A stretch of 64,000 nt of DNA from Desulfosoma sp. (GCA_037481835.1 JBBFKW010000009.1:1-64000); one strand, 5' to 3'. Shown: positions 345 to 30,859, counted from the first letter of the stretch. Translations and numbers: made by a program. Notes: generated from the sequence alone by a model not told the origin.

Positions 345-1403
345 CTAATATTTCAAGGTCTTGGGATGAATCCCTGGATCAAGCTTGATCGTTGTGAGAA
401 GGCGCACGAATTTTTCCGGCTGATCTAGATAGTTAAGGTAGTAAAGGTCCGCGCATAGTTTGTTGATTGTGCTATTTTGATATTGTTCGCAGCCTGTTTG
501 ATCAGCCCACTGGAAGCCTAGAACGAGCCCCTCCCATGTGTTTGATCCGGAATCAAAGCGAAAAATGATGTTCACGGCGTCTTCGTAAGGATGCCACGCT
601 TTTCGTTGTTCAGGAGTCGAATAGATAACTCCATAGCCACTCTTGCCGGGTGTGGCATTCAGCATCACCATCAGCGCATCCTCTTTGCACCATGGTTGGA
701 GCCCTTGGACAAACCACGACCCGGGACCGCGCCCCGAAAAGTACTTTTTGGCATACTGGGCCATTAAAATCCCTGAAGTAACCCCGGGACAGTAATGATC
801 ATGAAACTCAAAACTTCGAAAGGCATAGGCCGGAGCACCCGCGGCCACAGCGTTGGCAATGGTCACCACGGCGAACTCATTGCCTCCGAATTGAGGGGCA
901 AAAGATTCCGGATTCTTGAAAATGAAATCAGCTTTTACATTTTCAACGCTGGCGACTTTGAAGATGGATGTGGTCGCCACAACATCTCTGATAGCCTCAG
1001 AATTCACCTCCATATAGGCCATGAATCCGGAGGAATCATCATATATGGCAAACCACAAAGGGCGCTCCGGCGCGGAGTGGACCTCCACGAGGGTTTGGCT
1101 TCCACGGCTGACCCCCAAAACATCGCTCAGGCCATCCAAAGCAGCCAGACTCTGCTCGCCGTTGGGTTCGGCATATCCCGCATTGGAAAGAGCAATCCAC
1201 TTTCTTTGAAACGGCAGCGCCATGGAGCGGCTACTGATTCGCGAACGCGCTTCAGAGGCTGCCAGAGAACCGATCTGATAATACTTGTCGTAATAAACTG
1301 AGCCCATGCACGAAGGCGGAGCAACGCTTGAGGCCACCGTTGCCATGGTTGCCACCAGCACCACAATCCCAAGCCACGAAAACCCGCAAAAACGTCTTTT
1401 CAT
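345..1403 (-). CDS. Secreted FmdE-family (FwdE-like) protein
   Basis: N-terminal signal-like hydrophobic stretch; FmdE motif FHDHYCPGVTSG and PWCKEDA; ends at TAG with the frame staying open beyond it (see findings). Confidence 0.75.
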   Translation of the reverse strand: MKRRFCGFSWLGIVVLVATMATVASSVAPPSCMGSVYYDKYYQIGSLAASEARSRISSRSMALPFQRKWIALSNAGYAEPNGEQSLAALDGLSDVLGVSRGSQTLVEVHSAPERPLWFAIYDDSSGFMAYMEVNSEAIRDVVATTSIFKVASVENVKADFIFKNPESFAPQFGGNEFAVVTIANAVAAGAPAYAFRSFEFHDHYCPGVTSGILMAQYAKKYFSGRGPGSWFVQGLQPWCKEDALMVMLNATPGKSGYGVIYSTPEQRKAWHPYEDAVNIIFRFDSGSNTWEGLVLGFQWADQTGCEQYQNSTINKLCADLYYLNYLDQPEKFVRLLTTIKLDPGIHPKTLKY

Positions 1404-1658: not shown

Positions 1659-2043
1659 GGAAAATCGAAAAAAGGCAACCCATCCCGGACAGGCTCCGGT
1701 TTCCGGCCGGGTCTCCTAAAGATTTGCGGAAACGATGCAGCGGTTGACACAGACGAAGCCGCGAAAAGAACTATGGATGATGCGCGCCAGAGGCGTGGGG
1801 TCCATCGTGCCCTCAGCATGATCTTTTCGCGGGCTCGCGGGGCAAAAGCCGTCAACATCTCAAACGGTCCTGACGCGACCCCCGTGGTCCCAGGCGCGCG
1901 AAAAACGTGGTGCCCCCAAGCTGCCCTTCAGAGCACATCGAGCGTGCAAACGACACGTTGGGCACCGCATTCCGATCATATCGGGAAAACGTCGCACGGA
2001 CAGCACGATTTTCCCGACACAAGCGCTAGGTACGCGTTGTGAC

Positions 2044-3093
2044 TCATCCTTGTTTTGCGGTGTGGCGGAATGGAAGGTCGCTCACATCGCCCAGGATGTC
2101 CATGAAGGGTTGCCGTCGCAGCCGATGGGGAAGGACCAGTTCAGCGGCGATTTCCACATCTTTTTGTTCCACCATGGTTCTTGCTTCAAAAGCCGCGTGG
2201 GTCTTGGCGCATTTGAGCATGATGATGTCCGCGCGATGACCGTCCACACCCACTTCCAGACAATAAGAGGCGATGTCGAAAAGAAGAGAACGGGCCACGC
2301 TCACGTGCGGGTAGAGGGCCCGTGCCCTCTCAATACGTTCAACCAACTTTCGTGAGGCCTCCGCCCACCGTTCCGTAAAGCCGTCTGGATCGTCATCGAA
2401 AGCCGCCCGGCGCTCCATCAAGTCCACCCGCTGCTCCACCTCCTTCAATCCTTCCACATGAATGCATAAGCCGAACCGGTCCAGCAACTGAGGGCGGAGT
2501 TCCCCTTCTTCGGGGTTCATGGTCCCGATGAGCGTAAACCTGGCGGGATGGGTGAAGCTTACCCCTTCCCTTTCAATGGTGTTGACGCCCATGGCCGCAG
2601 AATCCAAAAGGACGTCCACCACATGGTCGTCCAGCAGGTTCACTTCGTCCACATAAAGAATCCCCCGGTGCGCCGCCGCCAGGAGTCCCGGTTCCACGCG
2701 TTTTTCCCCTTTCTTGAGAGCATGCTCCAAATCCAGCGTCCCCACGACACGATCTTCCGTCGCTCCCACGGGCAATTCCACCACCCGGATTTTGCGCCGC
2801 TCCATCTCTAAAGTTTCCCCTGCCATGACCTTTCGGCTGCATGCCGTGCGCGGGCAATCGGGGCAAATCCCTTCGGGATCTCCAGAGGGAAGCTGGAACG
2901 GGCAGTCTTTGACCACTTCGATTTTCGGCAGGATATGGGCCAGGGCCCGGACGGCCGTGGACTTTCCCGTGCCCTTTTCGCCGCGAATCAGCACTCCGGA
3001 AAGCGTGGGATTGATGATGTTAAGGATGAGGGCTTGTTTCATTTTCTCTTGGCCTACCATGGCGACGAAAGGAAACAGCTTTTCCGCACTCAT
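2044..3093 (-). CDS. chlI: Class I chelatase AAA+ ATPase subunit, ChlI/BchI-like
   Basis: [18 protein letters not shown] Walker [34 protein letters not shown]. Confidence 0.9.
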
Positions 3094-5126
3094 CGGGTCA
3101 CCTCCTTGACGATATGAACAAGCGTGTCGGCCTTGAGATCATCGATGGCAAAGTAGGGGGCGTTCATCACGGCGGCGAGCTTTCGGGCCAAGCCGAACCG
3201 CACGAGGCTCGACTTTTCCGTATCCACCACGATGGGATGAATCCGTTCGTCCAAGGCCAAGCGCTCGGCCACGAGGAGCGCTTCCTCCACGGGTTTGCGC
3301 TTTCCCAGAGCCACGTTGGCCTTGCCGTCGGTGACGATGATCACGATGGGCTTGGCGGTGGGATCCCTCAACAGGACCGTTCGGGTGACTTGATAGGCTT
3401 TGATGAGCGCCCCTGAAAGGGGCGTTCGGCCTCCGACGGGCAGTTGCCGAAGGAGCCGCGCTCCCAGCTCCACCGAAGAGGTGGGAGGCAGCTGAAGCTG
3501 CGCCTCATTTTTTCGAAAGGCGATCATGGCTACCCGATCCCTCTTCTGATAGGCGTCCATCAGAAGAGACATGACGGCCCCTTTGGCGGCTTCCATCCTC
3601 CCCTGGGCCCCCATGGATCCGCTGGCGTCCACCACGAAGAGCAAGAAATTCCCCACACGGCGTTCCCGCACCTTGTGCCGCAGGTCTTCGGAGGTCAGCA
3701 CCACCGCCACTTCGTGGGAGCCTTGCGATCGTCGGGTGGGCTGGTGTGGCGCGGCGGCCCGCAGCGTGGCATCCAAAGCCACATCGGCTCCCGTTCCATG
3801 GAAGCTGCTGCGAACGTAGCGCCCTTGTTTCTGGGCGCAGCGGGTACGGCTCCTTCGTCCCGATCCCCGGCGCAGGAGGCGGTCCTTGGGGGCTGAAAAT
3901 CGGCGCACCTTGAACGTTTCCCCGATTTGAAAGACGCGCTCCAACGCGTTGTTCAATCCCTGGGACGGCTCTTCGGGCGCCCGTTCCTCTGTGGAAGGAA
4001 CGCCCGGTTGGGCGGCTCGAGGAGTTTGCGGAAACTGTAAGGTTTTTTCTTGGGTGTGCTGATTCTGCTCAACCTGGGACTCTCGGTCCGGTTCATCCTC
4101 TTGAGTAGCGTCCTCGCCGCGGGGCTCGGGCGGAGGCGGAGGAGGCGGGGGAGGAGGCGGTGCCGCACGCCTCCTGCGGTGCATGAGGACAAGAGGCGCC
4201 ACTTCCCGGATGTCTTCTATAGTCACCACACCCTTTCTCGCCAAGGCTGCGGCGGCTTTGGCCGCCTGTTCCATGACCAGCTCCGCCCGGTGCCCCGCCA
4301 CGTTCTGTTCCGCGACCAGTTCGGAGATGAAGGTGCGCAGATGTCGGGGTAATCGCACCTTGGGAAGCATTTCTCGAGCCGCCAGGATGGCCCACGCTGT
4401 GGCACGGTTTTCTTTTTCAAACTCCGCCGAAAATTCCTCGGGATCCAAATCGAACCTTTCTCGACGCACCATGAGTTCCACGCGCTGCTTGGGATCTTTT
4501 TCTCCCCAGACTTCCACACAAAGGCCGAAACGATCCAGGAGCTGCGGGCGCAGTTCCCCTTCCTCGGGGTTCATGGTCCCGACGAGAAGGAACCGAGCGG
4601 GATGCCTGAAGGAGATTCCTTCCCGTTCCACGCGGTTCCATCCCGAAGCGGCGGCATCCAAAATGAGGTCGGCGATGTAGTCGTCCAAAAGGTTCACCTC
4701 ATCCACATAAAGGATGCCTCGGTGGGCTTTGGCCAAAACGCCCGGGTGGAAGCGTCGTGCCCCCGTTTTGACGGCGTCTTCGAAATCGATCCCTCCCACG
4801 ACCCGGTCTTCGGTGGCGTTGAGGGGCAGGGTCACCACAGCAGTCCTTCGATGGAGCACGGGAAGGGGCGGTTCGAGGCGGCGACAGGCGGCACACCACT
4901 CTTCAGGCCGGTCCGGGTCACACATGAAGCCGCAGCCTTGGATGACGCGGATTTCGGGAAGAACGGCCGCAAGAGCGCGCACAGCCGTGGATTTCGCCGT
5001 GCCCTTTTCCCCGCGGATAAGCACCCCGCCCACCCCGGGATTGACAGCGCTCAGAAGAAGGGCCTTTTTAAGCTTCTCCTGGGCCACCAGGGCCGAAAAC
5101 GGATACACCCGGGCAACAGCGGACAC
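3090..5126 (-). CDS. chlD: Class I chelatase subunit D, ChlD/BchD-like (AAA + Pro-rich linker + vWA)
   Basis: AAA domain like ChlI, poly-Pro linker, vWA MIDAS DASGSM; GTG start at 5126 after AAGGAAGG. Confidence 0.9.
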
Positions 5127-5194
5127 GTTGCACCTTCCTTTTAAATGTGAGAAACTGAACCGCCCCCGACGTTCATGATCTGGCCGACATTCTT

Positions 5195-7225
5195 TCAAAA
5201 GCTATACGTCACAGAAAGGCCCACAATGTAGTTTCTTTCGGGGATATAGCTTCCGATCTCCCTTTTCTCACGTTCATTAAAAATATTGTACACATCGAAG
5301 CTTGCTTGGATGATGTTTTTCCAATCCAGGGCAAAGCCCAGCGTGTGATACCAAAAGTCCCCTACGGTTTCCATCTGGGGGGGATTGCCCCAACTGGTGG
5401 AGGTGTAGTGACCCCGATACCTGGCCGCATAAGATGTCAGCAGCTTGAAATCGTAAGGGAGGGGTTGAACTGCTCGAAGCCCCAACGTCAGGCTGTTTCT
5501 CGGGTATCCCTCAAGAATGTCCTCGGTTTTTTCGTCGCGCGTTTCATTGTAGTTGTAGTTTAGAAAAAGCTTGGTCTTCCGGGTGAGATAATAGGCCAAT
5601 TCCACGTCAACGCCTTGGATTTCCACTTTATCGATGTTTTCCGGCTGCATGATTTGTCCGCCGGGATTGAGAGGATCCGGGAACCGCACGGACGTGATAA
5701 AATCTTCACCTTTGGTGTAGTACGGGGTTAGCCTGAAAAAGACTTTCTTGTCGAGAAAATATTGTTCTATCGACGCCTCATAAGACCACGTGGTTTCGGC
5801 CTCCAGATCGGGGTTGCCCTGATAGACAATGAAAGGAGCTATGCTCCAAGGAGGCGAAAACAGCTCGTTCAGATTGGGCGCTCGAAATCCTTTTCCGGCG
5901 GAAAGCTTAAGGTTGCCGTCTTTCCAATAGTTCCACCGCAGGGTGGCCTTGGGGGAAAACTCGCTCCCGTAAGTGTCGTAACTGTCGAAACGAGCGCCCA
6001 AAACGAGCTCGAAGTGGTCGAAAAAGGTCCAATCATATTGACCGTAGAGGGACAAAACGGTGTCGTTTTCGTCGGTCTTGAGGCCCGGCCGGCCTTGAAC
6101 ACTGAGAATCTGCCCAGTCGCTCGATCGTAAATGGCCTTTTCGGCCGTTGTGTAAACGGCCTCCGTGCCGATCGTGACAACATGATTTTCGTTCAGCCAA
6201 TAACTGGCGGACACATCGCCCCGGTAGCGATCGGCATCCGTAGTATTGACGGAGGGTCTATAAGAAAATTTGGGGACCACCTGTCCTGAGGGCAGCCGAA
6301 CCCAAGCGACGCTTTCCAAAGTCTCCCCGTAGTAGTCGTGGCCCGAGTGGAGCCAATCCACTTGGGCCCGGAGTTCCAGATTTTCCAATAGTTGACTGGT
6401 CGTCTGCAGATTCAGGTATGGCTGTATGGCGTCCTGATGGTTGTCCAGCCCCAAATTTTTCGAGATGCCTAATCCCGTCTTGCCCCGCATCCATCCCCCC
6501 GAAAAGGAAAAGACGGTGTGATCCCCGACGGATCCCGTCATCTTGCCGTGAACACGGTCATGGTTATAATCCCGATTTTGATCGTCAAGATTTTTGTCAT
6601 TGTAGAGGTAATAATTGTCGATATCCTTATGATCGTAAAAAACACCTAGGGAAAAATTTTTCCAGCTGAGGCCTCCGTCAAGGCCGTAATCCGACCGATT
6701 GAAACTGCCCGTCTCCAGCCAGGGGGTGAGGTTTTTCTTCCCCTGGCCGTCCTTGGTGATAATGTTGACGATGCCGCCGCCGGCGTTGGACCCGTAAAGC
6801 GCCGAAAAAGGCCCGCGGATGACCTCGATCCTCTGCACAGCCCTCACGGGGACGGTGGTCAGGTAGGCATAGTTGGTGAATGGCGAGTCGATGCGCTGTC
6901 CGTCCAGAAGGATGAGCGTGCTTCCGGTAAAGCCCTGGCCCCGCATGGTGAGGAGCTGGGGGGTGACCAGGCCTTCCCCCTGGGGCTCGTTAAAGGAAAC
7001 ACCGGGAAGGTCTGCGATAAGGTCGAAGACGGTGCGGGCCGGCATGGTTTGGATCTCGTCCTGATCAATCACCGTGACCACCGCGGGAATGTTTTCCAGC
7101 TTCTTCGGGGTTTTTGTCGCGGTGACCACAACGGTTTCCAGCTCATGGGCCCTTTCCGTGGATGCTCCCACGGGCGCACTCCACAACAGCAGGCAGACAC
7201 AGAGAATCCCCATGTACCCCTTCAT
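5195..7225 (-). CDS. TonB-dependent outer-membrane receptor
   Basis: Signal peptide, TonB box ETVVVTATKT, RIEVIRGPFSALYG, GNPDLEAE, C-terminal Phe; ATG 7225 after GGGAGG. Confidence 0.9.
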   Translation of the reverse strand: MKGYMGILCVCLLLWSAPVGASTERAHELETVVVTATKTPKKLENIPAVVTVIDQDEIQTMPARTVFDLIADLPGVSFNEPQGEGLVTPQLLTMRGQGFTGSTLILLDGQRIDSPFTNYAYLTTVPVRAVQRIEVIRGPFSALYGSNAGGGIVNIITKDGQGKKNLTPWLETGSFNRSDYGLDGGLSWKNFSLGVFYDHKDIDNYYLYNDKNLDDQNRDYNHDRVHGKMTGSVGDHTVFSFSGGWMRGKTGLGISKNLGLDNHQDAIQPYLNLQTTSQLLENLELRAQVDWLHSGHDYYGETLESVAWVRLPSGQVVPKFSYRPSVNTTDADRYRGDVSASYWLNENHVVTIGTEAVYTTAEKAIYDRATGQILSVQGRPGLKTDENDTVLSLYGQYDWTFFDHFELVLGARFDSYDTYGSEFSPKATLRWNYWKDGNLKLSAGKGFRAPNLNELFSPPWSIAPFIVYQGNPDLEAETTWSYEASIEQYFLDKKVFFRLTPYYTKGEDFITSVRFPDPLNPGGQIMQPENIDKVEIQGVDVELAYYLTRKTKLFLNYNYNETRDEKTEDILEGYPRNSLTLGLRAVQPLPYDFKLLTSYAARYRGHYTSTSWGNPPQMETVGDFWYHTLGFALDWKNIIQASFDVYNIFNEREKREIGSYIPERNYIVGLSVTYSF

Positions 7226-8600
7226 ACCGGCCTCCCTTTCTTTCATGGATGGTCCCCTTTTCCAGAAACAATTCCCTTTGTCCCAAAACGGCGGCGACCC
7301 TCTCATCATGCGTGGCGCTCAGAAGCGCCCCACCTTCTCCCACAAATCGGCTCAATCGCCGGATCATGAGCTTGAGGCTCCGATCATCCTGACCCACGGA
7401 AGGTTCGTCGAGGAGCAGGAGGCGAGGGCGGGCCGCCAGAGCCGCGGCCAGGGTCAACCGTCGCATCTGCCCCATGGAAAGGCTGCGCGGATGCCGATCT
7501 TTGAGGGGCTCCAGCGCCAAAAATTCGAGCTCCTCCCCCACCGCCTCGTCGTCCGACGCTCGAACCCGCACCTCTTCCCAAACCGTGGGCATGAAAAGCT
7601 GGGCCTGAGGCCATTGAAGAACCAGGGTCGCATCCGGAATCCTGCGCTTCGATGCCCTTGCGCCTACGGGAATATCGCACACGACGATGGTTCCCTTTCG
7701 GGGACAGAGCAAACCCATGGCAAGAAGAAAAACGGTGGTCTTGCCGCTCCCGTTGGCCCCGCGCAGCACCACGCTTTCTCCTGAGGCCACCTCGAAGGAC
7801 ACCTGGGAAAGGAGGGGGAAGCCGTCGGCGTCGCCGTAGCCAAACTCCACATCCTCAAAGCGCAGACACACCCGTCCCGGCGGACCCTTTGGAACGGGCG
7901 CCAGGGACTCTTGCGAAGGCGTCTGGGAGCTCAAACGCCCTTGATGAAGGTAGAAGGGCCGAACCCCGGTTGTCCTGAAAAGTTCCGGGCGATGTTCGAT
8001 AACGACTAGGCTTTTTCCCTGGTCTGCGAGGGCGCCGAGCAGATCGAGGAGCACGCCACGACTCTGTTGGTCCAGGTAGGCGCAAGGCTCGTCCAGAATA
8101 AGAAACCTCTGGTCCAGAGCGAGAAGCGCCGCGATCATGACCCGCTGCAATTCCCCGGAAGAAAGGGTTCTTAAAAGCCGGCCCCGTAATTGCTTCGCAT
8201 TGACGAAATTGAGCGCTCGCTCGATGAGGGTTTCCATGGCCTGCGGCGCCACACAGGCGTTTTCCAGTCCGAAGGCGATCTCGTCCTCCACCCGTTCGGT
8301 GAAGGCCATGGCGTTCACGTCTTGCAGCAGAAAGCCCAAAGTCCGACACGTGCGCCACAAAGGCGTTTCCCAGGGCGACCGGCCCAGGATGCGAACACTG
8401 CCGGAAACGTCCGCTTTGAGGAGTTGGGGGATTACGCCGCACAGCGCAAAAGCCAAGGTGGATTTGCCTGAACCCGTCGGACCTAAAAGAAGCGTTGTTT
8501 CTCCCTGGCGAAACTCCGCGTCCAGACCCCGCAAGGTGGGAATCGGCTGGTTGGGGTAGCGCACGCAAAGGCCCCGGACATCAATCACCGTCGCGCCCAT
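7143..8600 (-). CDS. ECF transporter tandem ATPase (A-A' fusion)
   Basis: Two Walker A motifs (GPTGSGKS, GANGSGKT), LSSGE and LSMGQ signatures, EDEIAFGLEN; start could be 8630. Confidence 0.85.
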   Translation of the reverse strand: MGATVIDVRGLCVRYPNQPIPTLRGLDAEFRQGETTLLLGPTGSGKSTLAFALCGVIPQLLKADVSGSVRILGRSPWETPLWRTCRTLGFLLQDVNAMAFTERVEDEIAFGLENACVAPQAMETLIERALNFVNAKQLRGRLLRTLSSGELQRVMIAALLALDQRFLILDEPCAYLDQQSRGVLLDLLGALADQGKSLVVIEHRPELFRTTGVRPFYLHQGRLSSQTPSQESLAPVPKGPPGRVCLRFEDVEFGYGDADGFPLLSQVSFEVASGESVVLRGANGSGKTTVFLLAMGLLCPRKGTIVVCDIPVGARASKRRIPDATLVLQWPQAQLFMPTVWEEVRVRASDDEAVGEELEFLALEPLKDRHPRSLSMGQMRRLTLAAALAARPRLLLLDEPSVGQDDRSLKLMIRRLSRFVGEGGALLSATHDERVAAVLGQRELFLEKGTIHERKGGRYEGVHGDSLCLPAVVECARGSIHGKGP

Positions 8601-9286
8601 TCCAAAACCCCGCACAATCCCATGAGACACACAACCGCGGTGAGCATCAGGCCGTCCCTAAGGCGAAACGCGGGGAATTGTCGGCACGATCGGGCAAGTC
8701 CCGGCGAAAACCCCCGAAGTTCCAGGGCCAAGGTGAGCCGTTCGGAGTAATCGAAGACGTAAAAAACCAATGGGACCACAAGACCCCTGTAGATTCGTTT
8801 CGTCAGAGGCCAGGACTTTCCCCAGAGATGAACAAAAAGCCGCAGGCGACGCACCTCTTCCGCCAGTGTGGGGAAAAAACGCCACATGAGCAGGAGGCTG
8901 ACCATCACGCCGGGCGGAACGGGCAATCGGGACAGAAAGGCGGCCAGGTCCGAGGCAGAAGTCGTCAAGGAAAAAAGAGGTATGGCAAGCAGAAAGACCA
9001 CAAGGCGCAGCGTGTAGGTCACGGCATGGGCGGGATCCTGAGCCACCAGAAAATTGGCTGCAGCAAAAGCAAGCAGCACAGAAAGCAAGGCAACTACACG
9101 CGGCAGCGAAAGGCGAGGCCGAAGGCTTGCGACGACCCCGACGACAAAAAACAGGAGGATCGCCAAAGCATGGGGGTTTTTAAGGAAAAGGGCATAGATC
9201 CCGATACCGCATCCAAGGATCACCTTGGTCAGGGGGTGGAGTCCATGGAGAAAACGAGCAGGAGTGCCGGCGATGCGCTGCATCAT
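8585..9286 (-). CDS. ECF transporter transmembrane T component (EcfT/CbiQ family)
   Basis: LHPLTK, RFFPTL, ALELRGF motifs; multiple TM helices. Confidence 0.85.
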   Translation of the reverse strand: MMQRIAGTPARFLHGLHPLTKVILGCGIGIYALFLKNPHALAILLFFVVGVVASLRPRLSLPRVVALLSVLLAFAAANFLVAQDPAHAVTYTLRLVVFLLAIPLFSLTTSASDLAAFLSRLPVPPGVMVSLLLMWRFFPTLAEEVRRLRLFVHLWGKSWPLTKRIYRGLVVPLVFYVFDYSERLTLALELRGFSPGLARSCRQFPAFRLRDGLMLTAVVCLMGLCGVLEWARR

Positions 9287-9843
9287 CGTACCGAGAGCCC
9301 CAGGTCCAATTTCCCTGCACGAGCCAGTTCCTTGGCCAACTTCAATCCGATGAGCCCGCCGGCAAGTGATGTGGCGAAGATGGCGATTTCAGCAACGACG
9401 AAAATCCAGGGCGCGATTTTGCCGTACCGCTCGGGGAGAAAGAAAAAAGACAGGAGCATGGCGAACGGAAACATGGCCATTTCGTACAGCACGGTCCCGA
9501 CGAGAGGCGCCCGAGTTCCACGATAGCCACGGAAAAGACCGCTGCAGATCAGTTCGCTCACGGCCCCACCCCCAAGGACGAACCCGAAAACCACGGGAGA
9601 TGCGGCCACAAGGCAGATAAGGGAATAGAGGCCCGTAATCAAAAGGAGAGAGCCCGGTCTTCGCAAGCGGACCAGCCCGATGACGATGAAAATAGACGCA
9701 AAGAAGGCGTTGACGGCATTCGCCAGCCCCGGGATACGCAAAGGGAGCGTTACAGGGATGACCACACTCGCCACCACAAGCAAGGCCACGGAGGTCATGG
9801 CGGCAAAGACGTATTCCCTTGTGGTCCAGTATGCGCCTTTCAT
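9283..9843 (-). CDS. ECF transporter S component (MptD-like)
   Basis: 186 aa, about 6 TM helices, RRPGS motif, coupled to EcfT and EcfA. Confidence 0.7.
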   Translation of the reverse strand: MKGAYWTTREYVFAAMTSVALLVVASVVIPVTLPLRIPGLANAVNAFFASIFIVIGLVRLRRPGSLLLITGLYSLICLVAASPVVFGFVLGGGAVSELICSGLFRGYRGTRAPLVGTVLYEMAMFPFAMLLSFFFLPERYGKIAPWIFVVAEIAIFATSLAGGLIGLKLAKELARAGKLDLGLSVR

Positions 9844-12800
9844 AGTTCCATTCGCTCCTCAATGATCCCTTCAAGCTCGAGGTATCGATCCCGGATCAAA
9901 GCCTCCTCCTCGTCCGTGGGCGACCAGTACCCCCTTTCCTTGGCTTCCAGCAAACGAGCCAGGATTTGTTCCATGGCGAAACGGTTGTTTTCCGCCATGC
10001 GCCGGAACAGCTCATCGTCCCTCGCGTATCGGTCAACAAGGCGTGACCAGATCCATTCCCCCACGGCATGGGTGGTTGCGGCAAAGCCGATGAGGTTTTC
10101 CACCCGGTCGGCGATCTTTTGGGCGCCGTGGAAGTGGTGAGCCAGGAGGCCCTCGATCCACTTGGGGTTAAGGAGTCGGGTGCGAACACCCCGCTCCAGC
10201 GCCGCTTTCACGTTTTCCGTTCTCACGACTTCCTTCGTGGTGTCCGAGATCAACATGACCGGGGGGACGCCCCGCACCATTTCCACGCTCCGGCACAGGC
10301 CCCCGAAAAACTCGTAATAGTGGTCCAGATCCATGATCTCGTACTCGTGGGAGTCGCGAATCTGGCTCACGAGTTCCACGCGCCGCACAGACTCCTTGTA
10401 AAGCTCTGGAACCTTCCTGCCGTGCAAAGCCCCACCGTAAAGGTGCTGCATAGAGGTCATAAACAGCGAGGCGATCTCCTGTTCATCCTTCCACGCACCC
10501 GATTCGATGAGGGTCGTGACCCGAGTGCCGTATTCCCCGGCACGGGGGCCGAAGATGCGCCCGACCGCCAAGTGTTCCCGTTCCTCCTCGTCGGCCGTCA
10601 CATCTTCGAGGCTCTGTCTTATGCGATCAGTGTGGTCCCGGACGAAATTGTGTTCCGGGGGTTCGTCGAGCTGGGAGACCAGCTGGAACGCTCGGTGGAG
10701 CAGGTCCAACACGTTGGGGTACATATCGCGGAAAAAGCCGCAAATCTGCACTAGGCAGTCCACTCGGGGTCGTCCCAACTCCTCCAAGGGGATGGGCTCC
10801 AACTTTTTGTGATAGGGGTTGCCGTCGGGGGCAATGCGTACCCCCAAGTATCCTAAAACCTGGGCCACCGTTTCCCCGCGGGTCTTTGTCGTCTCGAAGC
10901 CCCACAGGATCACGGCGACGCTTCTGGGATAGGCTCCCTGTTCGGCTCGGAAATGTTCCAGCGTTTTTTCCGCAATGCTCAGTCCCCGTCGCATGGCCTC
11001 TTCCGAGGGCACCAGTCTGGGATCGAACTGAAAGGAATTGCGTCCCGTGGGAAGCGCCTCGGGATTGCGCAGCGGATCTCCCCCTAACCCGGGCTCCACG
11101 TAACCTCCCCGTAAGGCTCGGAAAAAGTTCTCGTACTCCAAACGAGCATCCAGCTTCCTTACCGCATCCAGAGCCTTTTCCACCGCGGCTCGCCAAAGGG
11201 GGTCGTCGGGAAAAACTTTCTCGGTCCACGCCCTTCGAACAACCCGGCGCACCTCACCTTCGATCTCCTCCAAAACCCCCAGGGAATGCGGGCCTCCTGC
11301 CCCGTCACCCTTGCCTGAAAGCAGCATGTCGTAATCAAGGCCTCTGGATTGGGCGATGAGCCGGTGCAGGGACGGGCATCCATCCCTGTCGTAGCGGAGA
11401 AAAAAGACGGCGAAGTCCATACGCTCGTCTTCGCCGACACTTTCCCCGAGGACGTGCAGCCCGCACGGAATCAGGGTCCGCTTCATCACGAAGAGTTCCT
11501 CCTGGAGGGAGGCAACGTCTGAGGCGCTGAGTTCCAGAGCCCGGGCCTTCTCGAAAAGGCGCTTTTCCAGCCGTTGGGCGCGATCGGGGTGCAGCATTTG
11601 GGCTTCCAGGTACTCCTCGATAAGGCGTTCCAGAACCTCATAGTCGTCGTACAACCCTGCCACCGTAAACGCCGGGGAGTTATAATTGATGAGGACACCC
11701 AGACTGCGCCTTTTGGCGATGGTCGCTTCGGAGGCGTTGACGACGTGATAGAAGTAAAGGTGGGGAAGATTGCCGATGAGGGCTTCAGGAAAGCACCGCC
11801 GGCTGACCCCCACCTCCTTGCCTTTTAAGAATTCCAGGGTGCCGTGGGTTCCCACATGGACCACGCAATCGGCCTGCCAGATTTCTTCGAGCCATCGATA
11901 AAAGGCCACGTATTGGTGATGAGGCGGCACGGTCTTGTCGTGGCCGATTTTATCCGGATCCTCGTGAAAGCCCCGAACGGGTTGCACCCCTAAAAGGACG
12001 TTGCCGAACTCCAAAACCGGCACAAAAAGATCGCGCCCGTCTGTCATGATGCGACCCGGCGAACGGCCCCACAGCGCGTTCACTTCTTCCGCGGGTGGAA
12101 GTTTTTCAAGAATCTCTTGGTAAGCGCCTCCGTTGAACTTCACGCCGCCGAATCCTCCGGCTTTCAGGTCGGTCCACCGGGAAGAATTGACCAGCCGCTT
12201 CTTCAGCAGGTACTCGCCGAGCGTTCCTTCTTCAGGCAAACCCGAGACGGAAAACCCACGGCGCTGCATCTCCCGAAAGAGTTTTTCCAGACTTCGGAAG
12301 GTGTCCAGGTAGGCGGCGGAGCCCAAATTGTCCTCTCCGGGGGGATTATCATAGACAACAAAGGCCACGCGCTTTTCCGCATCGGCTTTGTGCTGCAAAA
12401 CAATCCATCGACGAACGCGCTCCGCCACACGATCAATGCGATCCTCCAGGGGAACGACCCTTTTGAAGGTCATGCCTTCAGGATCACTTTCCTTTTTGAG
12501 GCCCGCCGTGGGGATGGGCTCGATCATGCCGTCCAGTTCGGGCAAAACCACGGTGGTCAGGATTTCCACAGGGCTAAGACCCCGCTCGCTCTCCTCCCAC
12601 CTTGCCACTTCTCCGCCGTACATGGGGCATCCCGCAAAAATGGGAACATTCATGTCCTTGAGAATGCCTATGGCGTCTTGAGGAGAGTCTGCCGTGAAAG
12701 TGACGAGCTGAAACCACTGGAGGTAGACGACTGCACCGACAGTGCTCCGACCATCCTTCATAAAATGGTGGCGCATGGCCGCCAGGTTATGGCCTGTTTT

Positions 12801-13601
12801 CGCAAAAACTGGACGGACGGCCATGCCCTTGCGCATAAAGGCTTTGGCAAGGGCTTCGGTCGGAATGAGGCTTTGAGAGAAGTGCATGCCGCCGTAAAAA
12901 AGCAGACCCACGGAAGGAATGCCGTTCGTCCATGGCGCGCCGGGCTCCAGACGGTACCCGTTCGAGGTCGAAACCTGGAACGCGAAATTGTAAAGGCCGT
13001 GGTCCGGGAAAACCACCGGGCCGGGCACGGATAAGTGCCGGTGTCCAAGATATTCTTTCGCCGCAAAGGCGATGAGCAGGGCAATGTTTTCGGCTCCTCC
13101 TTCCTGCCAGTAGCGCATCATACGGACCCAGTTCCTGGCATGCTTCAAGGGACCAAAAGGAAGCAGTCTCCCGATCCTTTCGGTCCACTGCATTCCCGTT
13201 TGGATCCACCTCAGATTGAATTCTCCTTTGGAGGGGGACGGTCTCTTTTTGGAGGAACGATTTAGGGCCTTATCCAGGGAAAAAGAGCCGAGCCGAAGCA
13301 ATCTTAATGTTTCGGGGCTTCCCCCCAAAAGCAAAACGACCGGTTGCGACGTCAGAGGAAGAACACGGGCGCACACGGCCGCTGTTCGGCCGCCTCCGCG
13401 AAGATCCAGGAACACCAGGTGAGAGCTGCGGAGGCTCTCTTCGAGGCGGCGCGCCGCCTCGGCGTTTTCGTCCACATCTTGCGTGGAGAACACCTTGAAA
13501 ACACATTCCCTTGAAAACCTTTCGCGAAAATGCCGCACACCCTCCCAAACGGCTTCGGTCAGAGCAGCATTGACAACGAAAGTCAACGTGTCTCGATGCA
13601 C
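9840..13601 (-). CDS. Class I chelatase large subunit, CobN/BchH family
   Basis: 1253 aa; LPELDG, PPHHQY, HVGTHGTLEF, SEATIAKRR, LPTGRN, RTRLLNPKWIEG. Confidence 0.9.
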   Translation of the reverse strand: MHRDTLTFVVNAALTEAVWEGVRHFRERFSRECVFKVFSTQDVDENAEAARRLEESLRSSHLVFLDLRGGGRTAAVCARVLPLTSQPVVLLLGGSPETLRLLRLGSFSLDKALNRSSKKRPSPSKGEFNLRWIQTGMQWTERIGRLLPFGPLKHARNWVRMMRYWQEGGAENIALLIAFAAKEYLGHRHLSVPGPVVFPDHGLYNFAFQVSTSNGYRLEPGAPWTNGIPSVGLLFYGGMHFSQSLIPTEALAKAFMRKGMAVRPVFAKTGHNLAAMRHHFMKDGRSTVGAVVYLQWFQLVTFTADSPQDAIGILKDMNVPIFAGCPMYGGEVARWEESERGLSPVEILTTVVLPELDGMIEPIPTAGLKKESDPEGMTFKRVVPLEDRIDRVAERVRRWIVLQHKADAEKRVAFVVYDNPPGEDNLGSAAYLDTFRSLEKLFREMQRRGFSVSGLPEEGTLGEYLLKKRLVNSSRWTDLKAGGFGGVKFNGGAYQEILEKLPPAEEVNALWGRSPGRIMTDGRDLFVPVLEFGNVLLGVQPVRGFHEDPDKIGHDKTVPPHHQYVAFYRWLEEIWQADCVVHVGTHGTLEFLKGKEVGVSRRCFPEALIGNLPHLYFYHVVNASEATIAKRRSLGVLINYNSPAFTVAGLYDDYEVLERLIEEYLEAQMLHPDRAQRLEKRLFEKARALELSASDVASLQEELFVMKRTLIPCGLHVLGESVGEDERMDFAVFFLRYDRDGCPSLHRLIAQSRGLDYDMLLSGKGDGAGGPHSLGVLEEIEGEVRRVVRRAWTEKVFPDDPLWRAAVEKALDAVRKLDARLEYENFFRALRGGYVEPGLGGDPLRNPEALPTGRNSFQFDPRLVPSEEAMRRGLSIAEKTLEHFRAEQGAYPRSVAVILWGFETTKTRGETVAQVLGYLGVRIAPDGNPYHKKLEPIPLEELGRPRVDCLVQICGFFRDMYPNVLDLLHRAFQLVSQLDEPPEHNFVRDHTDRIRQSLEDVTADEEEREHLAVGRIFGPRAGEYGTRVTTLIESGAWKDEQEIASLFMTSMQHLYGGALHGRKVPELYKESVRRVELVSQIRDSHEYEIMDLDHYYEFFGGLCRSVEMVRGVPPVMLISDTTKEVVRTENVKAALERGVRTRLLNPKWIEGLLAHHFHGAQKIADRVENLIGFAATTHAVGEWIWSRLVDRYARDDELFRRMAENNRFAMEQILARLLEAKERGYWSPTDEEEALIRDRYLELEGIIEERMEL

Positions 13602-13618
13602 AGCGTCTCCTTTCCCCG

Positions 13619-13665
13619 AAAAAGAAAAGCCGTGAATGCGCCGAATAAGACGCCTTCACGGCCTT
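13619..13665 (-). promoter_or_regulatory. Leader terminator/attenuator hairpin, copy 2
   Basis: AAGGCCGTGAAGGCG-TCTTATTCGG-CGCATTCACGGC-TTTTCTTTTT, ending 17 nt before the chelatase GTG. Confidence 0.75.
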
Positions 13666-13699
13666 GAAAGCTCCTTCTTAGAGCCTCTATTCGCGTATC

Positions 13700-13728
13700 C
13701 GTATATCCACGAAATATGACTATGTCAA
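13700..13728 (-). promoter_or_regulatory. Putative sigma70 promoter of the chelatase operon
   Basis: TTGACA-17 nt-TATACG on the minus strand. Confidence 0.5.
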
Positions 13729-13746
13729 TGAGAAATTTCCCTCTCC

Positions 13747-14382
13747 TTACGGCGAAGCAAAGGATGGCCGTACTTGCGGCTCTGATGGGCCTTTTGACGC
13801 CTTGAGGAAGTATCGACCGGGTACGTCTTCGAGGTGCGCCAAGGAGAGGCCCGCCTCGGCAATGAGGCGGGCCATGGCGCCCTGGTCCGGAAGAACGTCC
13901 CGGCGGACATCTTCATGGCTGGCGTGGTGCCGGGCCAGTTCGTCGCGGCTCAAAAGATGGGCGATGACGAGGCAGCCCCCGTCTTTGAGCACGCGGGCCA
14001 TTTCGGCCAAGGCCCTGAGGGGATCGTCGAAATGGGGAAAGGCGGCGAAACAGATCACCCGGTCGAAGGCGCCGCTTCGGCACGGAAGGGCGTGCACATC
14101 CGCCCGGAGCACGGCGGTGCGCGGCGACGCGCATTTTTTTGAAGCCTCCACCGTCATGGCCCACGCCAGATCAAAAGCGAGAATTCGACCTTCGGGGCCC
14201 ACCAGGCGTCGCAGGTAAGGGATGAGAATCCCCGGTCCGGTCCCCACGTCCAAGACTGTCTCCCCGCGGGAGACTTGGAACTCTGGAAGGAGTTCCTCCA
14301 ACCGCACCCGCACATCCGGCGGATAACAGGTTTTCTCCCAGGATGGGGCGCGCGCTTCAAAAAAATCCACCTTTCCCGCCAT
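13747..14382 (-). CDS. Class I SAM-dependent methyltransferase (UbiE-like)
   Basis: VLDVGTGPG motif I, FDRVICFAAFPHF, RVLKDGG. Confidence 0.85.
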   Translation of the reverse strand: MAGKVDFFEARAPSWEKTCYPPDVRVRLEELLPEFQVSRGETVLDVGTGPGILIPYLRRLVGPEGRILAFDLAWAMTVEASKKCASPRTAVLRADVHALPCRSGAFDRVICFAAFPHFDDPLRALAEMARVLKDGGCLVIAHLLSRDELARHHASHEDVRRDVLPDQGAMARLIAEAGLSLAHLEDVPGRYFLKASKGPSEPQVRPSFASP

Positions 14383-14424
14383 GCCGCCTTCCCCTTCCAA
14401 CGACCCCTTTCTCGGGTCGCCCGA

Positions 14425-22435: not shown

Positions 22436-22708
22436 ACCGTGCCTTTCCCGAGTGCCCCCCTCAGGCCGCGGAATACCCGGATGGAGGCGTTTCGGCCCTG
22501 TCAGGGCCTTGGAGGCTCACTTTCGTTGATCACAACCTGGCAATGAAGCAGCCGATCCCCCCGGATGCCGGGACTGCACGCCCCCACAAAAAACCCAAGC
22601 CCCGGAAGGGCGAAACACCCCAACCCGCCACCGCCAAGGGGGGACATCACCCGAAACATCCCAGCCCGCAACCGCCACCTTGTAGGGCGGATCCCTGAGA
22701 CGGGCCGC

Positions 22709-22767
22709 AAAAAAAGGGCACACGAAGCCGCCGTCCTCTTCTGAGGCACTGGGCGGCCTTCGTGGCC
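22709..22767 (-). promoter_or_regulatory. Leader terminator/attenuator hairpin, copy 3
   Basis: GGCCACGAAGGCCGCC...GGCGGCTTCGTGTGCCC-T7 between cooT and the FecCD operon. Confidence 0.7.
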
Positions 22768-22819
22768 CCACTTTGGTCTTCGGCTCACCGCGCTCGGGGA
22801 CTTCGGTCCCCGGCGCTTG

Positions 22820-25461: not shown

Positions 25462-25540
25462 CTGGAACCCTCCATACACTGCCCGGTTCAGGCCTCTTCC
25501 CAGCCAGCCCGATCCCGCCACATTTTTTCATCACAAACAG

Positions 25541-25593
25541 AAAGGCCACGACCCATCGCTTCATTCAGCGAAAGCGACAGCCTTCGTGGCCTT
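25541..25593 (-). promoter_or_regulatory. Leader hairpin, copy 4
   Basis: AAGGCCACGAAGGC-TGTCGCTT...AAGCGATGG-GTCGTGGCC-TTTCTGTTT; TTGACA at 25676-25681 upstream. Confidence 0.7.
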
Positions 25594-25692
25594 TTTCTTC
25601 CCAAAAGTTCTTCTTTTCGCAGAGGCGCCTTCGCGGCGCCGTTGTCGAGCCTTCATTATCCAAGACGGCACGTGTTGTCAATCCATTCACGT

Positions 25693-30590: not shown

Positions 30591-30663
30591 ATCTCCCTTT
30601 TTCATCCGGCGGTTTCTCACGGCCCCGCACCCCCCTCCCCGAGGGCACGGCCGAACTTGCATG

Positions 30664-30828
30664 TCGCAGGCAGGTCTTCTGACTCTCGGATCATCCTACC
30701 GGCTGCGCCTTCCCGCCTCCGCATGGAAGGCAGTGGCTGTGGAGCAGCTTTCGTTCCCGATTACAGCGGCGGGCCCGTTCCCGACTTGCACGGGATTCCC
30801 TTTTAAGCCTTGCGGCGCCTGCGCATCG
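30664..30828 (-). ncRNA. Cobalamin (B12) riboswitch
   Basis: Minus strand AAAAGGGAATCCCGTGCAAGTCGGGAACGGGCCCGCCGCTGTAA...GCCACTG...GGGAAGG...AGTCAGAAGACCTGCC. Confidence 0.95.
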
Positions 30829-30830
30829 CC

Positions 30831-30859
30831 TTGCTACCAAGCGGGCCTTCGCCTGTCAA
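30831..30859 (-). promoter_or_regulatory. Putative sigma70 promoter of the btu operon
   Basis: TTGACA-17 nt-TAGCAA immediately 5' of the riboswitch. Confidence 0.55.

Follow-up and report, generated by a model that had tools for sequence, protein, structure and literature searches.

What does a class I chelatase do when it is encoded in one operon with its own importer and its own outer membrane receptor? The question is raised by a 64,000-nucleotide (nt) stretch of DNA from Desulfosoma sp., a sulfate-reducer-type bacterium (GCA_037481835.1 JBBFKW010000009.1:1-64000; the whole stretch is called the window below). Seven open reading frames (ORFs), all on the minus strand and running from position 13601 to 2044, encode a CobN/BchH-like large subunit; the S, T, and fused A-A' components of an energy-coupling factor (ECF) importer; a TonB-dependent receptor; ChlD; and ChlI. 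Our answer, held tentatively, is that the operon is a nickel (possibly nickel/cobalt) starvation unit, in which a metal chelate would be imported and an ATP-driven cytoplasmic machine would release nickel from it. The proposal starts from a conserved gene content and order, from a large subunit that falls in a separate clade with its own signature, and from a leader element that makes the operon a member of a regulon. Nickel would be the signal for this regulon, the substrate would be an organic chelate, and the metal would be removed rather than inserted.

The ORFs of the window were assigned to families with Pfam and NCBIfam by comparing bit scores to the curated cut-offs. The seven genes, in the order of transcription, are as follows.

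9840..13601, minus strand: large chelatase subunit, 1253 aa, with BchH-like architecture (PF02514, 1095 bits; GTG start)
9283..9843, minus strand: ECF S component, 186 aa, divergent MptD/Trep_Strep type (start overlaps the CobN stop by 4 nt)
8585..9286, minus strand: ECF T component, CbiQ family (PF02361, 64 bits)
7143..8630, minus strand: fused ECF A-A' ATPase, 495 aa, two ABC domains (PF00005 in two stretches; TIGR01166, 214.8 versus a cut-off of 211.8; Walker A at residues 50 and 291)
5195..7225 (ORF listed from 7309), minus strand: TonB-dependent receptor, plug and barrel (Pfam)
3090..5198, minus strand: ChlD-type medium subunit with an AAA+ module, lid, and VWA domain (PF13519, PF17863, PF01078; TIGR02442, 805.9 versus 779)
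2044..3093, minus strand: ChlI-type AAA+ ATPase (PF01078, PF17863; Walker A GEKGTGKS at residue 38)

Adjacent genes overlap by 4 nt at four of the six junctions. The T and A-A' genes overlap by 46 nt, using the listed GTG start, and the A-A' and receptor genes overlap by 167 nt as listed or by 83 nt with the probable receptor start at 7225, where a GGGAGG ribosome site and a signal peptide are found. Within these 83 nt (7143-7225), the tail of the A-A' gene is read in another frame and has no counterpart in a related locus, L001. The gene order and the tight spacing of stops and starts described in a first-pass annotation of this DNA are thus upheld by the ORF coordinates and family assignments. 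The features of a three-subunit class I chelatase are present, namely, a PF02514 large subunit (positions 2-1089 of 1090), an I-type AAA+ protein, and a D-type AAA+ protein with a VWA domain; a search of the ChlD-type subunit for Walker A (GxxxxGK[ST]) gave no match.

The identity of the large subunit is central to the question. It scores above the cut-off of the BchH model (TIGR02025, 873.8 versus 829, aligned over residues 11-1248) and below the cut-offs of the CobN model (TIGR02257, 636 versus 822) and of all NF00464x rows. The closest solved structures by sequence are ChlH 4zhj (569 bits), CobN 7c6o (464), CobN 9uk9 (421), and HmuS 9d26 (366). A tree was computed for 20 proteins (quick IQ-TREE, LG+G4, 1228 columns), a small sample with midpoint rooting only and with long branches and uneven composition flagged, in which seven anchors were identified by annotated gene context. 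The two BchH anchors lie inside bchF-N-B-H-L-M clusters. The three CobN anchors are the one in a cobW-cobN-cobG-cobH-cobI-cobJ cluster (L065), a Ralstonia CobN that adjoins a "putative cobaltochelatase" gene and has a gene for a cobalt-precorrin methyltransferase close by, and a Haloferax CobN whose gene immediately precedes two cobalamin genes. The two HmuS-type anchors, L063 and L064, are an Azospirillum "CobN" followed by MotA and DUF2149 genes and an Aureibacter gene beside HmuY. In this tree, 13 importer-linked proteins, including the large subunit, form one group with a Shimodaira-Hasegawa-like approximate likelihood ratio test (SH-aLRT) support of 100, and six ECF-linked proteins form a subgroup (97). 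CobN (100), BchH (100), and HmuS (96) are separate groups, and the sister relation of the importer-linked group to BchH has a support of only 77. The phylogeny that the first-pass annotation called for therefore places the large subunit outside all three anchor groups and not with bona fide CobN; judged by this tree, it is a member of a fourth, large, unnamed subfamily.

The sequence motifs agree with this placement. The GTHGTLEF (residues 584-591) and SEATIAKRR (residues 624-632) motifs, noticed at first pass as BchH-like, are present, and the alignment refines their reading: HxGTHGxLEF is common to all groups, and SEATIAKRR is common to the clade and BchH. The key residues are H582 and H586 (HVGTHG), E625 (SEATIAKRR), and H1094 and E1097 (DLDHYYEFFGG). 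The second active-site motif of the clade, DLDH(Y/F)(Y/F)E(F/Y)(F/Y)GG, has the His and Glu of HmuS (LDHxxEFxGG), where BchH has DHYFD and CobN has DDxxQ. Two further positions are specific to the clade, C954 (ICGFFRDM), where the anchors have Ser or Thr, and H1158 (HxxHG), where they have Glu, Lys, Arg, Ala, or Thr. All 13 clade members and none of the seven anchors carry ICGFFRDM, DLDH..E..GG, and HxxHG. Among the best 120 database hits, these motifs occur in 119, 119, and 108 proteins, respectively, including proteins of Methanothrix, Methanofollis, and ANME-1 with 53 to 56% identity over the catalytic third. A search with the catalytic part, in which only 8000 candidates were scored, matched at least 2749 protein clusters at an E value of ≤1e-20. 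The named proteins among the best hits are labelled "magnesium chelatase subunit H" or "cobaltochelatase CobN," and their sources are nonphototrophic anaerobes, methanogens, and ANME archaea.

Among known systems, the Mg-chelatase BchH/ChlH, BchI/ChlI, and BchD/ChlD shares the three-subunit class I layout and the full-length H-type architecture, and BchH/ChlH is the closest solved relative, with HxGTHGxLEF, SEATIAKRR, and the His of the DH motif in common. However, the clade is separate (as compared with two BchH anchors), the second motif is DHYYEFFGG here and DHYFDTLGG in BchH, and BchH has Ser and Glu at the positions of C954 and H1158. The operon is an importer operon with no bch genes adjoining. 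No cob, cbi, or bch biosynthetic families were found among 66 distinct window ORFs scanned with Pfam (mostly ≥150 aa, so that small genes may be missed), as the first-pass annotation had stated. The Mg-protoporphyrin methyltransferase domain (PF07109), the only chlorophyll-pathway marker searched, had no match in the genome, which is 99.4% complete, and the Synechococcus control was positive.

The importer and receptor could also serve haem-iron piracy, in which haem would be imported and its iron removed by a protein like HmuS or BtuS. LhaSTA is reportedly an ECF importer for haem, and the best NCBIfam row of the receptor is a hemin-type subfamily, although the receptor is below the cut-off of every NCBIfam receptor model (hemin-type, 176.8 versus 316.85; B12-type, 160 versus 599.7). 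H586, H1094, and E1097 align with His-538, His-1209, and Glu-1212 of HmuS 9d26, so that the His/His/Glu triad (HFGTHG and LDHxxEFxGG) and the DH..EF.GG motif are common to the large subunit and to HmuS (PMC12583661). The haem dechelatase HmuS/BtuS of Bacteroidota (PDB 9d26; PMC12583661; PMC6460266) is likewise a CobN-superfamily protein encoded beside a TonB-dependent receptor, with a proposed role in metal retrieval from an imported macrocycle. The differences are substantial, however. HmuS is membrane anchored, acts outside the cytoplasm, is NADH dependent, lacks ChlI and ChlD, and is accompanied by HmuY and MotA/DUF2149-type genes. Here, a crude hydropathy scan found no N-terminal hydrophobic segment in the large subunit, in contrast to both HmuS anchors, and the protein is probably cytoplasmic. 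It is encoded together with both AAA+ partners and an ECF importer, and HmuY and MotA/DUF2149 partners such as those in L063 and L064 are missing; its score against HmuS is below that against ChlH or CobN, its clade is separate from both HmuS anchors, and the genes of the leader regulon described below are nickel-type rather than iron-type. We therefore consider haem-iron piracy very improbable. The parallel with HmuS/BtuS suggested at first pass holds for an importer-linked CobN-type protein with a shared triad and fails for the probable cellular location and the retention of both AAA+ partners. A separate observation concerns the Azospirillum brasilense anchor (L063, plasmid ABSP7_p4, 3674-8405), which is annotated as "cobaltochelatase subunit CobN." Its product carries a signal peptide, MotA/ExbB and DUF2149 genes come after it, and in the tree it joins the Aureibacter protein that is linked to HmuY; this alphaproteobacterial gene thus likely encodes a protein of the HmuS type.

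The importer gives a further indication of what is taken up. The S component is a marginal member of PF09605 Trep_Strep (29.0 versus 28.7) and is well below the cut-off of NCBIfam TIGR02185 (25.1 versus 76.45); searches of the Protein Data Bank (PDB) with the single sequence and with a profile gave nothing meaningful. An AF2 model built with 21 homologues has a pLDDT of 92.4. Its best PDB fold is an ECF S component, 5edl (YkoE; TM, 0.63), and the next matches are other S components; in the ESM Atlas, it lies closest to Trep_Strep/MptD clusters (feature score, 0.92; structure TM, 0.87). As modelled, the small membrane protein is thus an ECF S component by its fold, and with a CbiQ-type T component and two ABC ATPase domains encoded together, the elements of an ECF transporter are present. 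Group I (dedicated) ECF importers with an MptD/Trep_Strep-type S component and fused ATPases resemble this one in encoding S, T, and A-A' together and in the S fold. They differ in that the S component here is only a marginal Pfam member far under the NCBIfam cut-off, travels with a CobN-type gene in close relatives, and works behind an outer membrane receptor. The cargo would be organic and probably tetrapyrrole-like, because the S component falls outside the ion-binding CbiM/NikM type and has no conserved His, Cys, or Met, because there is a dedicated TonB receptor, and because the enzyme family acts on tetrapyrroles.

The association of these genes recurs in other lineages. A scan of species genomes with the large subunit yielded 25 loci. 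The S gene directly follows CobN in 10 of them (L001 to L010), with T, A-A', receptor, and ChlD/ChlI genes next where the contig allows. These loci come from several phyla and are titled Desulfotignum, Desulfobacterales, Desulfatibacillum, Electrothrix, Desulfatibacillaceae, Anaerolineaceae, Chitinivibrionales, Fibrobacterota, Nitrospiraceae, and Vulcanimicrobiota. Variants have ChlD and ChlI on the opposite strand (L005 and L090), no receptor (L009), or the receptor placed first (L010). Fourteen loci (L012 to L025), mostly from Firmicutes, have no ECF genes; most of these have ChlI and ChlD behind CobN, and several have FecCD/ABC importer genes nearby. The remaining locus (L011) is a CobN fragment only. 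When metagenomes were scanned with an alignment of the S component, 23 loci were obtained. Close S homologues (59 to 89% identity) have CobN directly upstream in 9 of 10 loci, and the 13 distant loci (28 to 35%) are other ECF systems, two of them with a nearby CobN gene on the other strand. With CobN-S-T-AA' in 10/25 genome loci and CobN beside S in 9/10 close metagenome loci, the arrangement is more than chance. The flanking genes of related loci (transposase, P-type ATPase, Opp-type ABC, and sigma-54 activator) vary, and no common extra partner was found among them. Close homologues are present in Desulfosarcina ovata and in relatives from Desulfatibacillum, where cultivable carriers may be sought. 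Within the organism's own order, CobN-family genes occur in 23 of 41 genomes, often as several paralogues, and the S component occurs in 2 of 41 and in none of three same-genus genomes; the cassette is therefore an accessory unit, probably acquired horizontally. In one same-genus genome, a CobN-family gene has decayed into five pieces that contain TGA and TAG stops (G001:C2:79451-81737, minus strand).

The argument for nickel comes from the leader that precedes the large-subunit gene, which contains the following elements.

13700..13728, minus strand: promoter-like site, TTGACA (13728-13723), 17-nt spacer, TATACG (13705-13700), read from the sequence, with a putative function
13669..13685, minus strand: first small leader hairpin, GGCUCU-AAGAA-GGAGCU (minimum free energy and centroid folds)
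13651..13663, minus strand: small hairpin, GGCC-GUGAA-GGCG, inside the 5' arm of the terminator, candidate antiterminator (motif GCC-AYGAA-GGC)
13619..13664, minus strand: terminator-like hairpin followed by a U run, immediately ahead of the ribosome site and GTG start (fold)

The promoter-like site was not listed by a consensus scan because the second hexamer of the scan requires T at position 6; the same TTGACA-N16/17-TAxxxx layout is found before leader copies at 25.6 kb and 1.6 kb. The 131-nt leader folds at -46 kcal/mol (z = -3.6). Among 38 distinct leader copies with GCC-AYGAA-GGC, the loop is AYGAA in 31, and the fourth stem pair covaries (G-C in 11, A-U in 11, G-U in 7, and U-A in 4). 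The small hairpin and the terminator overlap in sequence and are therefore mutually exclusive, an arrangement that may act as a hairpin-versus-terminator switch. An Rfam scan of 13500-13800 at E values up to 10 returned only three chance-level rows, and the leader belongs to no Rfam family. The first-pass annotation had described it as a new hairpin rather than a B12 riboswitch, and this stands, since the window has a single cobalamin riboswitch, at 30652-30837. As a regulator of the operon, a cobalamin riboswitch was considered and rejected, with none found at the leader, in nine metagenome ECF-type loci, or before CobN in L001 to L005, L009, and L010.

A covariance model (R1) built from seven leader copies detects four copies in the window at 53 to 63 bits, with the operon copy at 13615-13673 scoring 53.3 bits. 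The next genomic hit (33.7 bits) resembles a plain terminator, and a fifth copy, at C10:39715-39773 (minus strand) of the same genome, was recognised by eye and scores only 16.6 bits. The four window copies lie in a 30-kb island of co-directional units, of which the chelatase operon is the fourth; the others are listed here.

Unit 1, minus strand: cobalamin riboswitch at 30652-30837 (113 bits), genes 30495-25693, BtuB-like receptor, BtuF-like binding protein, FecCD, and ABC ATPase
Unit 2, minus strand: leader at 25532-25602, ExbB, ExbD, TonB, DUF3842, and CooT (PF10133, 85 bits)
Unit 3, minus strand: leader at 22705-22778, FecCD, ABC, binding protein, two TonB receptors, and methyltransferase
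Unit 5, minus strand: leader at 1557-1616, secreted FmdE-domain protein

The leader element heads each of units 2 to 5, with a TTGACA-N16/17 promoter-like site before it in three of them. The 25.6-kb copy has three GAAGGC repeats, and its inner hairpin likewise has a GAA-type loop. The fifth copy precedes genes for a NikL-family subunit (NF058648, 101.2 versus 100, split over two ORFs), CbiM, CbiQ, and CbiO. The nickel reading is based on CooT, by its family name a nickel chaperone of CO dehydrogenase, on the NikL-type ECF system, and on the position of these genes outside the B12 riboswitch regulon. In unit 2, the DUF3842 and CooT genes are translationally coupled behind TonB (23432-22820, minus strand), and each is found singly behind the leader in relatives (L050 and L048), which suggests that DUF3842 is a nickel-handling partner of CooT.

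The same element recurs in related genomes in front of similar genes. R1 matches 34 of the 41 genomes of the order at an E value of ≤1e-4. For 29 relatives, the first ORF downstream of the best R1 hit was classified, and 21 of these ORFs have a Pfam family: TonB receptor (four), FecCD (three), OprB porin (three), ExbB (two), DUF3450 (two), and one each of CbiM, CooT, DUF3842, CobN, ChlI, an Opp/NikD-type ABC ATPase, and a CbiA/ParA P-loop protein. All 21 families are uptake-type or nickel-type; the other eight are short ORFs without a family and may be spurious. In six relatives (G008, G014, G017, G021, G025, and G032), a leader copy is followed within 8 kb by a CobN-family gene on its own strand. 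Among ECF-type loci with upstream sequence, the leader is directly before CobN in the window and in L001, L002/L003, L005, L090, L092/L093, and L095/L096. L005, a Desulfatibacillaceae contig, has two leader copies in tandem directly before CobN (9861-9993) and a third on the other strand (9576-9646), facing its divergent ChlD-ChlI genes.

Three further features of the island complete its description. A terminator-like hairpin at 1677..1695 (minus strand), about 350 nt past the ChlI stop and detected by the consensus scan only, is a possible operon end; downstream of it are the next promoter-like site and leader copy (1658-1557). Behind this promoter and leader, a gene at 345-1403 (minus strand) encodes a protein of 352 aa that carries a signal peptide, has an FmdE domain (HDHYCPG) at its C terminus, and lacks an NCBIfam match. 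Just upstream of the operon, the last gene of the preceding unit (13747-14400, minus strand) encodes an S-adenosylmethionine (SAM) methyltransferase, whose best NCBIfam row is the DVU_1556 family (73.6 versus 155).

With the regulon in view, a role in corrin synthesis can be weighed. The operon might encode a CobN-ChlID cobaltochelatase for B12 synthesis, co-transcribed with an importer of cobalt or of a cobalt chelate. The aerobic cobaltochelatases CobNST and CobN-ChlID share the superfamily and the three-subunit logic, the medium subunit here passes TIGR02442, which is named "putative cobaltochelatase," and related Firmicutes operons lie behind cobalamin riboswitches. The genome has one CobN-family gene, one CbiK, and a CbiD, and a search for CbiX found none. 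The sole CbiK (C2:151341-152952; L027/L081), encoded behind a cobalamin riboswitch, has a signal-peptide or lipoprotein-like N terminus in all five genomes examined (this one, G001, G002, G003, and G013). Given this N terminus and the lack of a CbiX match, a cytoplasmic cobalt (and siroheme iron) chelatase is not evident, which also speaks for a cobaltochelatase in the operon. However, the large subunit lies outside the CobN group and under the CobN model cut-off, and it has DH..E where CobN has DD..Q; the CobN motifs are DDxxQ and PGEGxQAKRR. The locus lacks the cobW/cobG context of L065, and the S component is not of the CbiM type. CobT (PF06213) had no match in the genome, with a positive Caulobacter control (CobS, CobG, and CobF were not searched), so the late-insertion pathway that would have argued against the salvage idea of the first-pass annotation was not encountered, and the early-insertion proteins CbiD and CbiK are present. 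CbiD and the same CbiK are retained in G002 and G003, two same-genus genomes in which no PF02514 gene was found; this lineage therefore has no need of a CobN-type enzyme for its corrin pathway. Five cobalamin riboswitches were found in the genome, one before the BtuB-BtuF-FecCD-ABC unit of the window, one before CbiK, and none before the chelatase operon. Altogether, a cobaltochelatase for B12 synthesis is improbable. Incidentally, the CbiD domain match of this genome is split in two by a gap within a single open frame of 1038 aa (C3:28732-29691; L028/L029), as it is in G001 to G003, and may reflect a fusion protein or an insertion.

The nickel starvation unit that we tentatively favour would operate as follows. 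When metal is scarce, the small GAA-loop hairpin would form, or be held, instead of the terminator, and the seven genes would be transcribed. The TonB-dependent receptor would take a metal-bearing organic chelate, probably a tetrapyrrole-like macrocycle too large for porins, across the outer membrane, and the dedicated ECF importer, with its novel S component, its T component, and its fused A-A' ATPase, would bring it into the cytoplasm. There, the CobN/BchH-like subunit would hold the chelate in its central cavity, and the ChlI/ChlD AAA+ motor would spend ATP to change its metal state. The most likely outcome would be the release of nickel for CO dehydrogenase and hydrogenase maturation. The first-pass annotation had proposed, in broad terms, that a tetrapyrrole or metallophore is imported for salvage and that its Ni, Co, or Fe is inserted, swapped, or removed. 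None of the present findings speaks against this proposal, and the shared leader regulon narrows the metal to nickel (possibly nickel/cobalt).

The direction of the reaction is where this proposal meets its main competitor. The operon may instead encode a forward chelatase, by which scarce nickel or cobalt would be inserted with high affinity, at the expense of ATP, into an imported metal-free tetrapyrrole or one made by the cell. To our knowledge, ChlI/ChlD AAA+ motors are known only from metal insertion, and the full class I architecture is present here. His586, Glu625, and His1094 are conserved as in BchH, and the cut-offs of both TIGR02025 and TIGR02442 are exceeded. Moreover, Kaster et al. 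proposed, in a passage of PMC3087415, that CobN-related chelatases of methanogens are nickel chelatases. The uptake regulon is less easily reconciled with a biosynthetic step that consumes metal, and sulfate-reducer-type bacteria are not known to have a Ni-tetrapyrrole pathway (no search for one was made here). The patchy S component (2/41 relatives) fits accessory scavenging better than a cofactor pathway. Release is favoured over insertion because the regulon is one of acquisition, because the trait is accessory and patchy, and because the dechelatase HmuS has the same His/His/Glu triad; insertion is accordingly possible but unlikely in our judgment.

Several observations weigh against the nickel release that we favour, in addition to the known use of the AAA+ motors. 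HmuS, the one proven dechelatase of the superfamily, works without an AAA+ partner (PMC12583661). The case for a nickel signal draws on CooT, on a NikL-type ECF system, and on importer families that could serve cobalt or other chelates. NikR control finds no place here, since searches of the genome and of 37 flanking ORFs from eight related loci found no NikR_C domain. The leader is absent in L009 and L010, and in G013, the only other relative with the S component, the contig in question has no R1 hit at an E value of ≤1e-4. The cobalamin riboswitches before the Firmicutes sister group (L013 and L014) point to cobalt or corrinoids for the wider clade. Finally, the S component belongs to a family without a proven substrate and, as noted, lacks conserved His, Cys, and Met residues.

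Published work provides a setting for this proposal. The idea of a third CobN type (BtuS) located beside importers for metalloporphyrin salvage comes from Rodionov 2003, as cited in PMC6460266. The haem dechelatase activity of HmuS was demonstrated in 2025 by authors who state that annotation is impossible for most of the superfamily, the archaeal members among them, and who call the role of homologues such as those described here unclear (PMC12583661). The suggestion of Kaster et al. that methanogen CobN-related proteins might be nickel chelatases (PMC3087415) is joined by a 2025 proteome study in which one such homologue rises only under nickel limitation (PMC12350162). The consulted passages of a review of cobalt handling describe predicted TonB receptors for cobalt and do not mention the CobN-ECF-receptor-ChlD-ChlI cassette (PMC7689651). 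Full-text literature searches, which covered listings and passages rather than whole texts and supplements, returned no description of this operon or of its leader. We regard the operon as a variant of class I chelatase and BtuS-type salvage systems.

A more far-reaching extension, which is speculative and which we think unlikely as it stands, is that the operon represents a first ATP-driven "nickel dechelatase" route. Under nickel starvation, the receptor and the ECF importer would take up a nickel macrocycle from the environment, for example coenzyme F430, a product of its breakdown, or another Ni-porphyrinoid. The BchH-like subunit, working with ChlD and ChlI, would then extract the nickel to supply CO dehydrogenase and hydrogenases. 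In that case, the signature-bearing subfamily of methanogens and ANME archaea would belong to the nickel economy and would not be a chelatase for Mg or Co.

The analysis gives a testable job to a very large group of enzymes that is mislabelled in databases as magnesium or cobalt chelatase. The operon is a compact and conserved test case, with a candidate ligand-binding S component and a receptor with which to fish for the substrate, a three-subunit enzyme that can be assayed in both directions, and a leader RNA that connects the operon with uptake genes of the nickel type. An answer would put right a large annotation error, would add a route of trace-metal acquisition in sulfidic, nickel-poor habitats, and would show whether class I chelatase motors can drive the removal of metal.

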